The position numbers were made by a program, and so were the translations under genes. Shown piece by piece: positions 42,703-46,329 of a DNA stretch of 64,000 nt (the first letter of the stretch is position 1; every line of letters starts with the position of its first letter). Source of the stretch: an uncultured Acidobacteriota bacterium (GTDB lineage: Bacteria; Acidobacteriota; Vicinamibacteria; Vicinamibacterales; CAVVIG01); contig CAVYZX010000009.1 of NCBI GenBank assembly GCA_963773035.1, positions 290,695 through 354,694 on the forward strand, read 5' to 3'. The notes under the pieces are model-generated. The model was given only the letters and a program-made list of their open reading frames with translations. It ran no database searches and had not been told where the DNA came from.

Positions 42703-42770
42703 CGGGTTCTCCATTAGAGCGCGTCGCAAATGTCGGTGGCGCAGCCTTCAGAGCTTGCAAATCAATCGCG

Positions 42771-42840
42771 TGTGGCTTCCGGCTTCAGCCGGAAGATCAA
42801 TACTGGCGGCTCTCTTCCGCCTAAAGGCGGAAGCCACGCG
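42771..42840. repeat. REP doublet (REPIN-like), copy 1
   Basis: GTGGCTTCCGGCTTCAGCCGGAAG ... CTTCCGCCTAAAGGCGGAAGCCAC inverted pair; recurs near 46224. Confidence 0.85.
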
Positions 42841-43014
42841 CCCGCAATTTTGCAAATCCGTTCCTAGCGTATGATCGCCTGAATCGAGGAGATCGACACA
42901 TGAAATCAGGGCGGACGTCCGTGGTTGCCTTGGTGACGCACTTCATCGTTCGCACAGTTGAAGGCGATCAGAAGGCTGTGCGCCAGGCCGGCACACTCAT
43001 TCCGGCGCGTTGAT

Positions 43015-44220
43015 TCATAGCTTTGCCTCCAGCCTGAGCTCGCGGGCGGCCTCCGCGATAGTCATGGTGACAGGCTTGCCCGACCGCCGTCGGATGGCGA
43101 CCGTTCCATCCTGCTCGTCCCGTGCCCCAACAGCGGCGAATACCGGGATGCCGCTTTCGAACGCGTCAACGACTCGACGTGACAGCGTCTCGGCGCGATC
43201 GTCCAGCACGGTGCGCAGACCGTCGCGTCCGAATACGGCGGCGACCTTCCTGGCGTACTCGATCTGAGAGTCGCTGACCGACGCCACCACCACCTGCTCC
43301 GGGGCGAGCCACAGTGGCAGGTCACCGCGATGATGCTCGAGCAAGATGGCTGCGAACCTCTCCAGGCTCCCGAGGATCGCGTGATGGATCATCACCGGCC
43401 GTACTCTGTGGCTCTCGTGATCGACGTACTTGGCATCGAGACGCTCCGGGAGCACGAAGTCGAGCTGGAGGGTGCCGCATTGCCACTCACGCTCGTGGCT
43501 GTCGCGCAGCAGAAATTCCAGCTTCGGACCATAGAAGGCGCCTTCGCCTGGCTGAACTGAATAGTCGAGCCCCGATGCCTTCGCCGCAGATTCGAGTGCG
43601 GCCTCGGCACGATCCCACACGGCGTCCGAGCCGGCTCGCGCGAGCGGCCGAGTCGAGAGTTTCACGGCGTAATCGGAAAATCCAAAATCCAGGTAGATGG
43701 CCTTGAGAAGCGCACAGAAACGATGAACCTCCTCGTCGATTTGATCGACGCGGCAAAAGATGTGTGCATCGTCTTGCTCGAACGCGCGAGTCCGCATCAA
43801 ACCCGAGAGCGCGCCAGACGGCTCGTTTCGGTGACATGCGCCGAGCTCGCATAAACGAAGCGGCAAGTCCCGATAGGAGCGAACCCGCTTGTTGAAGATC
43901 TGCATGTGCCCCGGACAGCTCATGGGCTTCAGCGCCAGGACGCGCTCGCCATCGTCCACCATGAACATGTTCTGGCCGAATTTTTCGAGATGGCCGCTGC
44001 GCTCCCAGAGAGAGCGGGCGAGCAGCTGGGGCGTACGCACCTCGTGGAATCCGGCACGACGCATATGTTGGTAGATGTAGTTCTCGAGCACCCGATACAA
44101 GACCGCCCCTCGAGGGTGCCAGAACACCATGCCGGGCGCGTCTTCCTGCTGATGAAAGAGATCGAGTCGATTGCCGAGTGCTCTGTGGTCGTGCCTGTTG
44201 TCCCTGTTGTCGTTGTCCAT
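43015..44220 (-). CDS. thrS: Threonine-tRNA ligase, short form (catalytic and anticodon-binding domains only, 401 aa)
   Basis: DHRALG..LDLF, PG.VFWHPRG, LWERSGH, KPMSCPGH, RSYRDLPLR, HRNE, QDDAH, GAFYGPK, WQCGTLQLDF and GSLERF; GGAGG RBS. Confidence 0.95.
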   Translation of the reverse strand: MDNDNRDNRHDHRALGNRLDLFHQQEDAPGMVFWHPRGAVLYRVLENYIYQHMRRAGFHEVRTPQLLARSLWERSGHLEKFGQNMFMVDDGERVLALKPMSCPGHMQIFNKRVRSYRDLPLRLCELGACHRNEPSGALSGLMRTRAFEQDDAHIFCRVDQIDEEVHRFCALLKAIYLDFGFSDYAVKLSTRPLARAGSDAVWDRAEAALESAAKASGLDYSVQPGEGAFYGPKLEFLLRDSHEREWQCGTLQLDFVLPERLDAKYVDHESHRVRPVMIHHAILGSLERFAAILLEHHRGDLPLWLAPEQVVVASVSDSQIEYARKVAAVFGRDGLRTVLDDRAETLSRRVVDAFESGIPVFAAVGARDEQDGTVAIRRRSGKPVTMTIAEAARELRLEAKL

Positions 44221-44259
44221 TGACGTCCTCCAGTCGTGAGTGCCGGACGGAGGAGGCCC

Positions 44260-44296
44260 AAAATAAAAAAGGCCCCACCGTTTCCGGCGGGGCCTT
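44260..44296 (-). terminator. Intrinsic terminator of the thrS attenuator
   Basis: Minus strand AAGGCCCCGCCG-GAAA-CGGTGGGGCCTT followed by TTTTATTTT. Confidence 0.9.
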
Positions 44297-44318
44297 GGTC
44301 GGTCGGCTTCTTTCGGGC

Positions 44319-44396
44319 TCAGTGCAGGACGACCTCCATGGCTCGCCGGGTGCGAGTCGTCGTGGTGGTCGTGGTGAACGCGTGTGAATGGGCCAT
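44319..44396 (-). CDS. Thr-rich attenuator leader peptide MAHSHAFTTTTTTTRTRRAMEVVLH
   Basis: Seven consecutive Thr codons (44375-44355) plus an eighth; stop 22 nt before the terminator stem; alternative ATG at 44411. Confidence 0.88.
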   Translation of the reverse strand: MAHSHAFTTTTTTTRTRRAMEVVLH

Positions 44397-44409
44397 GTGC
44401 GACAAATCC

Positions 44410-44415
44410 ATTATA
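44410..44415 (-). promoter_or_regulatory. Candidate -10 box for the thrS leader
   Basis: Perfect TATAAT on the minus strand 13 nt upstream of the leader ATG; no convincing -35. Confidence 0.45.
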
Positions 44416-44422
44416 GACGCAG

Positions 44423-45067
44423 TCAGGCGAAGATCTTCTTCCCTTGCAGCACGGCCTCGGTGATGAGGAGCGGCACCGCCCAGCAGAACCAGCTTGCGGC
44501 GGCGAGTTGCTCCTGCAGCGTTCCAACCTGTGCCGCCTGCAGGGTGCCCGCGAAGATCCGGAACGAGACGAACGCAAATGTCACGACGTAGCTGCGGATC
44601 ATCCACTCCTGATGCTGATGAATCAGCCCGCGGCGCACCGCGGCAAATGCCAGGCCCGTTGTGACAAGCCACGCAATCGCCAACCCTGTGAGGCCAGCGC
44701 CGAACACCCAACCCAGATCCGTATGGGCGGCCAGATAAAACGCTGCCACAGAACTCACCGCGATGGCCGCCATGTAGATGGTCCCGAGCGTGCGGTGAAG
44801 GGCTAACCGTTTCCGATTGAGCCCCAACCATAACTGTCCAGGTCCCGTGAGCAGGGCAATGACGCCGCCGCCGACGTGGAGAAGCAGCCAGCCGCGGCGC
44901 GGCCAATAGAAGCTAAACACCTCTTCATTAATGGCCAGGAAGTAGCGAAGAGCAAAGAACGCGACAAAGGCCAGGGCAATGAGCATCGCGGTCGACAGCA
45001 GAACCGCGCTCGGCCAGCGCGGCAGGCGCGGCGCTTGCGAACGGTGCTGAACGCTCGCTACATCCAT
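44423..45067 (-). CDS. DUF2306-like membrane protein
   Basis: H..GG.IAL..GP.Q, LHRTLG.IY and HQEWMIRSY; GGAGG RBS. Confidence 0.85.
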   Translation of the reverse strand: MDVASVQHRSQAPRLPRWPSAVLLSTAMLIALAFVAFFALRYFLAINEEVFSFYWPRRGWLLLHVGGGVIALLTGPGQLWLGLNRKRLALHRTLGTIYMAAIAVSSVAAFYLAAHTDLGWVFGAGLTGLAIAWLVTTGLAFAAVRRGLIHQHQEWMIRSYVVTFAFVSFRIFAGTLQAAQVGTLQEQLAAASWFCWAVPLLITEAVLQGKKIFA

Positions 45068-45160
45068 GAGAGCCTCCTCCCTGGTTTCCAACGACGGGTC
45101 TGCCGAATTCGAACGCGAGCCTTGACTCGACCGATGACCGGGGCACGAGATCCGGTCAGC

Positions 45161-46201
45161 TCATCGGCCGACAGCCGGCGTCCAGCCGTCGCCCTGCCCG
45201 TAGGCAAACGTGATGAACGGAAACGCTTCGACCTCGTGGATCTTTCCCCCTCGAATTCCGAAGGTCTCCATGGTCACCATGTTCAGAATCATGCCCAGCC
45301 CTCGCTGCGGCGGCATGTCGGGCAGGTTCTTGATCTCGACTGGGCGGCGGGTGCCGTCTTCGATGAACAGGGGGAAAGCTGCGGCGATGCCCTTCTGCTC
45401 GTCGATGATCAGCACTCTCCGCGGATAGATCTTCTTGATGAAGGAAAAGACGCCGGTGTCGAGCTGGGCGGCGCAGGTCATCATGCTCAACTTGGAAAAG
45501 GCACGGCCGGCCGGCGTGCTCGTGTCCGGCAGCGCTGGTGACGGGGCCGCGCGCCCGGGCTGTTTGTTGTTGACGGTCTGATAGCCGTTCTCGTGCCGCA
45601 CGCAGTCGTCCGCGAACGCTGCAATGCTGCCATCGTCGCTGGTCAGCCCGTCGAAATACGAGTGCGCCGCCCAGAGCATGACTTCCCTGGACGTCCGATC
45701 TGCGGGTGACACGTCGGTCGCCAGGCCGGGCCTGGGGGTTTTTAACAGCTCGAGTGCTGCCGGTGCGACGTTCCGGTCGACCAGGTGCTCGACTTCGGTG
45801 ATATGACGGCGTTCCACCTTCAGTCTGATCACGGTCAACGCAGGACGTCCTTCGATGTTGAACAGGGACTGAATCGCCACCTGTCCTGTGACGGGATCGG
45901 CAGCGTGAATGACGAACGGCGTGGGCTCGACTCTCGCGCGCCACAGAATTCCCTCGCCGATCGATAGCCTTGCCGTATTCTCCGTATACCAGGTCTCTTC
46001 CGACGTCGGCACGCTGGCCGTGTCTTTTTTCACCAGCGAGTTGACGTAGTTGTCGATGATCTGGACGAGACAGGCCCGGTCGCACGGCTGGATCTTCGAT
46101 GCATCCCAAGGCTGCTTGTACCAAGGCTTCGAACCCGTTTGTGCGTGCACGCCGGGAATCAAAACCCCGATGGCGGCCGCCGTCAAAAGCAGCTTCTTCA
46201 T
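45161..46201 (-). CDS. Conserved secreted hypothetical protein
   Basis: AAGGAG RBS; signal peptide; CDRACL, YTEN, YFDGL, C.RHENG and ETF.IRGGKIHEVEA; possibly two NTF2-like halves. Confidence 0.8.
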   Translation of the reverse strand: MKKLLLTAAAIGVLIPGVHAQTGSKPWYKQPWDASKIQPCDRACLVQIIDNYVNSLVKKDTASVPTSEETWYTENTARLSIGEGILWRARVEPTPFVIHAADPVTGQVAIQSLFNIEGRPALTVIRLKVERRHITEVEHLVDRNVAPAALELLKTPRPGLATDVSPADRTSREVMLWAAHSYFDGLTSDDGSIAAFADDCVRHENGYQTVNNKQPGRAAPSPALPDTSTPAGRAFSKLSMMTCAAQLDTGVFSFIKKIYPRRVLIIDEQKGIAAAFPLFIEDGTRRPVEIKNLPDMPPQRGLGMILNMVTMETFGIRGGKIHEVEAFPFITFAYGQGDGWTPAVGR

Positions 46202-46223
46202 TGCTCTCCTTGCCGGAATCAGT

Positions 46224-46329
46224 GTGGCTTCCGGCTTCAGCCGGAAGATCAAAGCCCTCGGCTCTCTTCCGCCTAAAGGCGGAAGCCACATGACAACAAT
46301 TCACGCCTAGAAGGCGGAAGCCACATGAC
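46224..46329. repeat. REP doublet copy 2 with a duplicated right half
   Basis: Same arms as 42771-42840; AAGGCGGAAGCCACATGAC occurs twice. Confidence 0.85.

Follow-up and report, generated by a model that had tools for sequence, protein, structure and literature searches.

A putative threonine-sensing attenuator upstream of a second, truncated threonyl-tRNA synthetase gene in an uncultured acidobacterium

In the genome of an uncultured bacterium of the Acidobacteriota (order Vicinamibacterales), a second gene for threonyl-tRNA synthetase (ThrRS), which lacks the editing domain, is very probably controlled by a ribosome-mediated transcription attenuator that senses threonine (Thr). The gene, here called short thrS, and its leader lie in a 64-kb stretch of contig CAVYZX010000009.1 (assembly GCA_963773035.1, positions 290,695 to 354,694). 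This whole stretch is referred to as the window; coordinates are positions in it, and the leader and short thrS are read on the minus strand. The leader contains an open reading frame (ORF) with a run of Thr codons, a terminator and a competing antiterminator. The arrangement recurs upstream of homologous short genes, and complementarity has been kept through sequence change in the distal part of the antiterminator and in a further helix downstream of the terminator. Read together, the sequences point to a real and conserved Thr attenuator that has spread horizontally and that adds one structural element to a known type.

Organization of the leader

The leader ORF, MAHSHAFTTTTTTTRTRRAMEVVLH, has 25 codons and a TGA stop (44396-44319; ATG at 44396-44394, stop at 44321-44319) and is preceded by TATAAT at 44415-44410, a candidate -10 box. 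An in-frame alternative ATG at 44411 would give 30 codons, with a start that overlaps the TATAAT. Seven consecutive Thr codons (ACC ACG ACC ACC ACG ACG ACT, 44375-44355) form segment 1, the proposed stalling site, and an eighth Thr codon (ACC) is found at 44351-44349; the ORF contains no isoleucine (Ile) codons. Segment 2, the 3' half of the ORF (44349-44323), can pair either with segment 1 or with segment 3, which consists of the spacer and the 5' arm of the terminator (44308-44285); the latter pairing is the putative antiterminator. The intrinsic terminator (3:4) is a hairpin of 12 base pairs, nine of them G-C, with a GAAA loop (44296-44269). It is followed by the U-tract TTTTATTTT (44268-44260, eight U in nine positions), where the 3' ends of attenuated transcripts would be expected. 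A pyrimidine-rich stretch, GGGCCTCCTCCGTCC, occupies 44259-44245. Here lies segment 5 (GGGCCTCCTCCGT, 44259-44247), which is complementary to positions 44280-44270 of the terminator 3' arm and overlaps the anti-Shine-Dalgarno (anti-SD) sequence CCTCCTCCG. The Shine-Dalgarno (SD) region of short thrS (44235-44222, with GGAGGA at 44231-44226) is predicted to be paired with segment 5 when the terminator is formed. The gene itself, identified by TIGR00418 and Pfam, encodes 401 amino acids and runs from its ATG at 44220 to 43015.

A preliminary description made from the sequence had named the TATAAT box, the 25-codon ORF with seven mixed Thr codons and one more, the lack of Ile codons, the complementary segments CCGGCGAGCCATGG (44349-44336) and CCAAGGCCCCGCCGG (44298-44284), the 12-bp GAAA-loop terminator with its U-tract and, beyond it, the ribosome-binding site of thrS. 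All of these were found where they had been placed. The same description had called the attenuator complete; its parts are indeed present, but the helix downstream of the terminator and the anti-SD pairing had been overlooked. Likewise, the two named segments do pair, but the antiterminator extends beyond the 14 nucleotides (nt) given for it and involves 44349-44323 with 44308-44285.

Judged from its sequence, the leader has three of the features that define a ribosome-mediated attenuator: an ORF with a cluster of Thr codons, a terminator, and an antiterminator that overlaps the 3' part of the ORF and shares the 5' arm of the terminator. The 206-nt leader folds with -78.1 kcal/mol (z -2.53), and 2 of 200 shuffled sequences were as stable. 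The 2:3 duplex of the window has a predicted energy of -26.7 kcal/mol (z -3.7 against shuffles). A single terminator-like site was found in 2.5 kb, compared with 1.9 +/- 1.4 in shuffled sequences, which is no excess; the evidential weight of the terminator comes from its conservation and not from the scan. As a whole, the single-sequence evidence at this locus is suggestive, not decisive.

Conservation upstream of short-form thrS genes

Pattern scans of genome and metagenome collections yielded 80 loci each. Short-form loci were defined by ORF length and by the presence of at least 185 nt of upstream sequence, and a poly-Thr ORF was defined as one starting with ATG, of at most 42 codons, with at least three consecutive Thr codons and located within 300 nt upstream of thrS. 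Such an ORF preceded 23 of 24 short-form thrS genes and none of 107 full-length genes; the 24 loci represent about ten clades and are not independent. The exception among the short forms (L166) is A+T-rich and has an identity of 39%. All short-form homologues of at least 55% identity for which upstream sequence exists carry a poly-Thr ORF of 22-26 codons together with a hairpin of the same family, 96-113 nt ahead of thrS. In these leaders the Thr run falls within codons 8-16, the 3' part of the ORF encodes GGCGGG, the leader stop codon lies 96-113 nt from thrS, and the terminator follows the pattern GGCCCCGCCG-N4-CGGACGGGGCC. In one carrier (L011), the Thr codons number just three and a canonical terminator is missing. 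The leader peptide is not conserved beyond the Thr run and the glycine (Gly) codons that encode segment 2.

The neighbourhood of short thrS is not conserved. In tblastn comparisons of the DUF2306, 376-amino-acid ORF, CocE and SGL proteins of the window with the 24 short-form loci, no match was found, and thrS is the only gene common to the clades. The absence of any shared neighbour suggests that the leader and its gene form a self-contained unit. The ribosome-stalling layout recognised in the preliminary description is conserved with compensatory changes upstream of homologous genes. Its proposed check, a search for conserved poly-Thr ORFs and covarying stems at short thrS homologues, gave both the 23 of 24 against 0 of 107 distribution and covariation of the distal 2:3 helix.

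Pairing in the antiterminator and terminator was analysed in 19 distinct leaders (alignment A2). The 2:3 duplex ranged from -22 to -36 kcal/mol across them, with a mean z of -3.1 against dinucleotide shuffles. In the distal part of the antiterminator the sequence varies between clades while complementarity is kept. For nine clades, the sum of duplex energies with each clade's own partner was -122.4 kcal/mol, against -97.5 +/- 6.9 for deranged partners, and only 5 of 7316 derangements reached the observed sum. The terminator was found paired in 98.4% of the cells of an alignment of 35 relatives, with double-sided changes at four of nine pairs; this alignment was fitted to that structure.

A helix downstream of the terminator

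The 3' arm of the terminator is complementary to a box located 10-25 nt downstream, which reads CCCGTCCG in most leaders and GGCCTCCTCCGT in the window. The resulting helix (4:5) has a predicted energy of -17.2 kcal/mol in the window, and masking of segment 3 gives it in the predicted folds of all 19 leaders. Because the position of the box in alignment A7 differs by several columns from clade to clade, helix 4:5 was tested by way of duplex energies and derangements. With ten arm variants, the sum for the leaders' own partners was -168.4, against -124.9 +/- 7.9 for deranged partners, and none of 21909 derangements reached it; with five arms, none of 44 did. The U of the box is the partner of a bulged A that is conserved in the 3' arm.

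In the window and in several other clades, the box overlaps the anti-SD sequence that is predicted to pair with the SD of thrS in the terminator state (-17.9 kcal/mol in the window). Masking segment 3 raised the predicted unpaired probability of the SD from 0.24 to 0.51 in the window. Over the 19 leaders the mean rose from 0.38 to 0.53, with an increase of more than 0.1 in ten and a decrease in none, and over nine further loci it rose from 0.32 to 0.51 (up in five, down in none). Helix 4:5 may thus relay the decision of the ribosome to the SD site, a proposal that has partial support and on which our judgement is evenly balanced. A relative without a U-tract (L103) nevertheless has complementary segments 2 to 5 whose sequences have changed jointly, a pattern that fits a relay to translation.

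Proposed mechanism

When Thr-tRNA is plentiful, the ribosome would pass through the 25-codon leader and occupy segment 2, or free it too late. The terminator 3:4 would then form, and RNA polymerase would stop near 44262, within the U-tract. If Thr-tRNA runs short, the ribosome would stall in the run of seven Thr codons, and segment 2 could pair with segment 3 before the 3' arm of the terminator exists, so that the polymerase reads on into thrS. In a second and less certain step, the freed 3' arm in the read-through RNA would pair with segment 5 (44259-44247). This would draw the anti-SD off the SD, so that thrS is also translated, and RNA that leaks past a formed terminator would keep its SD paired. 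The ThrRS produced would raise the charging of tRNA-Thr and close the loop. Most likely, then, this backup enzyme would be produced only at low levels of charged tRNA-Thr.

The short thrS gene and its origin

The preliminary description had assigned the downstream gene as thrS. It is a ThrRS gene, but a second copy of 401 codons without the TGS and editing domains, the full-length thrS (696 bits) being located on another contig (C22) of the same genome. The short protein scores 476.5 bits against TIGR00418 (cut-off 383.65) over profile positions 167-563 of 565, positions 1-166 being missing. Pfam finds tRNA-synt_2b and HGTP_anticodon in it and no match to TGS or tRNA_SAD. Along its entire length it can be aligned with the truncated chains of E. 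coli ThrRS that have been crystallised, and its C102, H153 and H279 align with C334, H385 and H511 (E. coli numbering), which we take to be the zinc ligands. The product is most likely able to charge tRNA-Thr: the leader is specific for Thr, and a product that relieves a shortage of Thr-tRNA would do so by charging it. By analogy, the short enzyme should mischarge serine in the absence of an editing domain, as a laboratory truncation of E. coli ThrRS does. The two tRNA_SAD domains in the genome belong to AlaRS and to the full-length ThrRS, and no free-standing editing domain was found; any editing would thus come from the housekeeping enzyme only.

The short form was found in none of 40 relatives (2 of the same genus, 22 of the same family and 16 of the same order), whose best matches were full-length genes with 43-48% identity. 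In a tree of 44 ThrRS sequences, obtained by a quick search without bootstrap, 17 short forms make up one clade (approximate likelihood ratio support, SH-aLRT, of 100) nested within a proteobacterial ThrRS clade (100), and the housekeeping ThrRS of the window genome groups with those of its relatives (97). The housekeeping ThrRS has at most 53% identity to any named locus. From the lack of the short form in relatives and its position among proteobacterial enzymes, short thrS is, as far as sequences can tell, a gene acquired by horizontal transfer. The named carriers of short forms are all Alphaproteobacteria (Kiloniellales, Hyphomicrobiales, Pararhizobium and Rhodospirillaceae). A full-length thrS is also present in three of five carriers, a fragment in one, and none was seen in one metagenome-assembled genome (MAG).

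At sites where 21 full-length enzymes show little or no variation, the short clade has residues of its own: N333S (N in 21 of 21), V376T (V in 21 of 21) and R512H (R in 19 of 21), with approximate numbering. In the window protein S101 replaces N beside Cys102 and H280 replaces R beside His279, both neighbours being presumed zinc ligands by E. coli numbering; T144 stands for V, A213 for L and V351 for R.

Some further features of these loci may be recorded here. A palindromic element of about 80 nt with arms GTGGCTTCCGGCTTCAGCCGGAAGA and TCTTCCGCCTAAAGGCGGAAGCCAC occurs at 42768-42849 and 46222-46301 in direct orientation, the two copies being 88% alike over 80 nt. They flank a 3.4-kb segment with short thrS and its leader, the DUF2306 gene and the 376-amino-acid ORF, and may mark the ends of the acquired DNA. 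In the genome, blastn gave 119 matches to this element, 61 of them of at least 60 nt, on 21 contigs; only two are in the window. An Acidobacteriaceae MAG (L065, 3001-3957) contains a 5'-truncated short-type ThrRS (residues 97-399) that abuts a gene on the opposite strand and has no leader; from its sequence it is probably a remnant. At another locus (L010, 2989-4354), short thrS is split over two frames, 126 amino acids in one being followed by the rest in the other.

Observations against the attenuator and alternative explanations

Several observations weigh against a Thr attenuator, or against parts of it, and these concern both the predicted structures and the expression of the leader. With five ribosome masks on the complete window leader, the equilibrium fold was the terminator every time; the switch was thus not visible in the mask-and-fold check that the preliminary description had proposed. 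With the Thr region masked and the 3' arm of the terminator unavailable, the best fold was the antiterminator (-29.9 kcal/mol). Since the antiterminator wins only before the 3' arm is made, the switch must be kinetic, which is how classical attenuators operate. The seven core pairs of helix 2:3 were 88.4% paired without any double-sided change, and 500 of 500 shuffles scored as high; pairs that never changed on both sides are uninformative. When RNAalifold was applied to plain MAFFT alignments, the antiterminator was missed and the terminator was the only helix found in the 3' part of the leader, a result explained by clade-specific indels that shift the flanks out of register. The 1:2 hairpin is part of the minimum-energy fold, but in the window (-15.8, z -0.5) it is no better than in shuffles. 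Across leaders its mean z is -1.24, it is clearer in the largest clade, and RNAalifold finds a five-pair 1:2 helix (85.8% paired, three pairs changed on both sides). U-tracts with at least five U in nine positions were present in only 11 of 19 leaders and are weak in some relatives. As for the SD relay, the derangement test on the anti-SD:SD pairing was not significant (780 of 10951 derangements reached the observed value), as would be expected if all SD sequences look alike, and no support is gained from it. In the largest clade, moreover, the SD hairpin is separate from the segment 5 box.

The expression of the leader is the weakest link for the window copy. Of 29 leaders examined, 24 have a TTGAC or TTTAC box whose first base lies 34-37 nt ahead of the ATG of the ORF, and the leaders inspected by eye also show a -10-like hexamer at a distance of 6-7 nt from this ATG. 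With such a spacing, the homologous leaders would start at the transcript 5' end or directly beside it. In the window, no TTGAC or TTTAC is found in the 50 nt before the leader ATG, so that the TATAAT has no usable -35 box. A promoter scan at the locus returned no sites, and the 13 nt between TATAAT and the leader ATG contain no SD. Homology between the window and the other leaders seems to set in with the ORF. Twenty sequencing runs contain the window or part of it, and the four of them listed as RNA contain 6-11% of the sampled words. In these four RNA-library runs (X17-X20), nine short contig pieces, 90-99% alike and derived from relatives, matched 42900-44700. They cover the 5' part of thrS, the hairpin and the end of DUF2306 to 44390, and none extends across the terminator. 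One of the contigs (run X18, 269 nt, four differences) corresponds to 44390-44658, that is, the 3' end of DUF2306, the TATAAT and the leader ATG. As the contig runs from DUF2306 to 44390, co-transcription with DUF2306 is possible. The contig is weak evidence that transcripts started further upstream can extend into the leader; the RNA library may contain carried-over DNA.

One alternative is that the hairpin is a mere terminator of DUF2306 and the Thr-rich ORF a chance frame in G+C-rich DNA. DUF2306, encoded on the same strand, ends at 44423, the hairpin is the first terminator that follows it, and one terminator-like site is within the shuffle expectation. However, the ORF, the hairpin and their spacing are found again upstream of this gene where its surroundings are unrelated, with -35 and -10 boxes of their own, no such ORF was found at the 107 full-length loci, and two helices covary. 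A single recent mobile insertion as the source of this recurrence is disfavoured by an inter-clade protein identity of only 51-68%. A mere terminator is accordingly very hard to reconcile with the comparative data. A second alternative, improbable but less so, is that control is mainly or only translational, the hairpin terminating poorly and the position of the ribosome setting the SD pairing through helices 2:3, 3:4 and 4:5. The strong covariation of 4:5 speaks for it, as do a relative (L103/L104) that keeps all pairings without a U-tract, the weak U-tracts of clade A and the pairing of the window SD with segment 5 in the terminator state. Yet the U-tract of the window is the best in its family and follows a stem of 12 perfect base pairs, the predicted effect on the SD is modest and near zero in the largest clade, and the anti-SD derangement test gave no significant result.

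The remaining alternative concerns what the leader answers to. It holds either that an antibiotic stalls the ribosome on the leader, as on erm and cat leaders, or that a natural inhibitor of ThrRS lowers Thr-tRNA and the short ThrRS is an inducible resistance enzyme like the indolmycin-resistant TrpRS1 of Streptomyces. We regard this as unlikely, though less so than mainly or only translational control. It would suit a rare and patchy accessory copy that is missing in 40 of 40 relatives, has variable neighbourhoods and forms one clade among proteobacterial ThrRS, as well as the clade's own residues beside two presumed zinc ligands. Relatives of the leader precede GNAT and NTP_transf_2 genes, and resistant second synthetases are a known kind of enzyme (PMC9437257; 10.1101/704981). 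An inhibitor of ThrRS would, however, act through the same sensing of Thr-tRNA and is therefore a rival purpose rather than a rival mechanism. No biosynthetic cluster or common neighbour was found in the short-form loci examined, and the lack of conservation of the peptide beyond the Thr run and the Gly codons of segment 2 speaks against a nascent peptide that senses a drug. In E. coli ThrRS, H309 and L489 are residues whose mutation makes the cell resistant to borrelidin (PMC4389257). Both positions are unchanged in the short ThrRS (H77 and L257, the offset being approximate), and resistance of the borrelidin type is thus without support.

Comparison with known systems

Attenuation of the thrL type is a textbook principle; the conserved version before a truncated ThrRS gene is absent from Rfam 15. 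The E. coli thrL leader (RF00506) resembles that of the window in its short ORF with a Thr run, its alternative antiterminator and terminator hairpins and its sensing of charged tRNA through ribosome stalling. It also has Ile codons, controls biosynthetic genes, and is not known to have a helix downstream of the terminator. The window leader, in contrast, has Thr codons only, precedes a synthetase paralogue, has the extra post-terminator helix and gave no match to RF00506. With Rfam 15 on 43000-45500 of the window at E values up to 10, four chance-level matches were obtained and no leader or T-box; on 12 related loci at E values up to 0.01, no leader and one sub-threshold miRNA match were obtained.

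The silent second ThrRS gene of B. subtilis, thrZ, is induced by Thr starvation through T-box leaders and encodes a full-length enzyme. As a backup ThrRS gene that is switched on when charged tRNA-Thr falls, it is the closest functional analogue of short thrS. The sensing differs, uncharged tRNA acting on T-box RNA in thrZ and a ribosome on a leader ORF being proposed for the window, where the search of 43000-45500 gave no T-box. In B. subtilis trpE, TRAP-dependent attenuation is combined with an SD-blocking hairpin in the read-through RNA. One upstream decision there sets both termination and SD pairing, as proposed for the window; the sensor of trpE is a protein, and the relay of the window is predicted from pairing.

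Attenuators with leader peptides are also known for synthetase genes, E. coli pheM-pheST being an example, and the window leader is like them in placing classical attenuation upstream of an aminoacyl-tRNA synthetase gene. In Streptomyces, such control is described for trpS and leuS (PMC1262725) and for thrL-thrS of S. lividans (PMC8079986). The caution of the preliminary description that novelty might be limited was therefore fair. According to the latter source, thrL of S. lividans is leaderless, as the homologues of the window leader would be. It contains two Thr codons and lacks a clear U-rich terminator, whereas the window has seven plus one Thr codons and a canonical terminator. The window differs from the Streptomyces cases also in its taxon and in that the gene is a truncated second copy. 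In Sinorhizobium meliloti, trpL (rnTrpL) is described as a leaderless attenuator with its ORF at the 5' end of the transcript, and SEP5 as a translated Thr/Lys-rich small ORF before an aspartate dehydrogenase gene (passages of PMC10117765). The homologues of the window leader resemble trpL in this respect, with the -35 box 34-37 nt upstream of the ATG in 24 of 29, and the window copy lacks this leaderless promoter geometry. The leader scaffold likewise precedes asd with Thr, Lys, Met and Ile codons, which recalls SEP5; the available passages of PMC10117765 mention no thrS leader.

A second ThrRS that is induced by stress, T2 of Anabaena (PMC4787780), forms Ser-tRNA-Thr (PMC9437257). The window enzyme has no editing domain at all and may likewise mischarge; T2 is induced by low zinc and not through a Thr leader. 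The table of duplicated ThrRS in a 2022 review lists only Anabaena T2 and the eukaryotic ThrRS-L (PMC9437257). In the open literature searched, neither a poly-Thr leader upstream of a truncated ThrRS gene nor a post-terminator helix was found described; a 2010 survey (Lopatovskaya et al., Mol Biol 44:128; cited in PMC4833913) may hold related predictions.

Related leaders in other genomes

A covariance model of the leader (R1) gave one strong match, of 85 bits, in the genome that contains the window. In 151 genomes of its phylum (own genome included), the model found this leader and one other, in a genome of the same family (G006). The latter (L221) has a leader ORF with seven consecutive histidine (His) codons, MSLNRHRHAHHHHHHHRCGGWEGFVRMG, and a strong terminator, and its sequence marks it as a leader of the classical His type. 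Among 151 genomes of the order to which the Pararhizobium carrier belongs, only two strong matches were found, the carrier itself and a relic that lacks a Thr run and precedes a DUF1127-like ORF. In 151 alphaproteobacterial genomes, sampled evenly and with the query G043 among them, matches at E values of at most 1e-6 were found in 12 genomes and at 17 places. One of these places is the leader of the carrier already known; of the remaining 16, two coincide with 3' ends of genes and probably represent ordinary terminators.

The genes downstream of these copies were named by Pfam unless marked otherwise. In the alphaproteobacterial sample, the scaffold precedes short thrS in three new cases and a full-length thrS in one (L223, leader MRTHPVLRSTATTTTTATGGRWRMRA). 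It precedes asd in four genomes (L216, L222, L227 and L214), where Thr, Lys, Met and Ile codons are mixed, as in MIRIATTTMTTKKATRFGGLPRGMS, and a DHDPS-family, dapA-like gene in another case (L217). Further copies stand before a GNAT gene, an isochorismatase-family gene, a DUF1127-like ORF (assigned by eye) and two further genes.

Three copies deserve further mention. Those at L184 (1501-1635, minus strand) and L218 (1154-1286, minus strand) have leaders without a Thr run, MIKSSRTFNRNHMTRFGWAVGGVAR and ...MLALRHLNKAAMTRSGGLWDVDVR, and precede small ORFs that end in the DUF1127-like sequences ...DIGLTRGEIDGIA and RDIGLTAAEIDAAV, a motif judged by eye. A weaker match from the order search (L188, 1501-1623, minus strand) consists of a Thr-rich ORF of the leaderless type, MNRIFAVSTTSTTTAPRWVVDA, and a terminator, AACCCGCCGGAGACGAGCGGGTTTTTT, followed by a gene for a 250-amino-acid NTP_transf_2 protein.

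On a tentative and somewhat doubtful reading, the scaffold would represent an uncatalogued class of leader-peptide switches widespread in Alphaproteobacteria, with a near-frozen G+C-rich core (GGCGGG / GGCCCCGCCG / CGGACGGGGCC / CCCGTCCG). Its fifth segment would relay to the SD, a single stall gating both transcription and translation, and different sets of codons would adapt it to asd, dapA-like genes and full-length or truncated thrS. It might then have moved, together with the editing-less ThrRS, into an unrelated soil lineage as an inducible backup, trading accuracy for charging or conferring resistance to an inhibitor.

Significance

The covariance model finds unannotated, putatively regulatory leaders before asd, dapA-like and thrS genes in Alphaproteobacteria, and if the proposed control holds, its use would improve the annotation of genomes. 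On the same condition, a helix that covaries with the 3' arm of the terminator suggests that attenuation can be made less leaky by gating the ribosome-binding site. The short enzyme may be either a cheap emergency charger or an inducible resistance determinant. In either case, a natural ThrRS without an editing domain would be switched on exactly when Thr is short, which is also when mischarging of serine should be worst. Such a regulated trade-off of accuracy for speed, or an inducible resistance to ThrRS inhibitors, would be testable in culturable soil bacteria.

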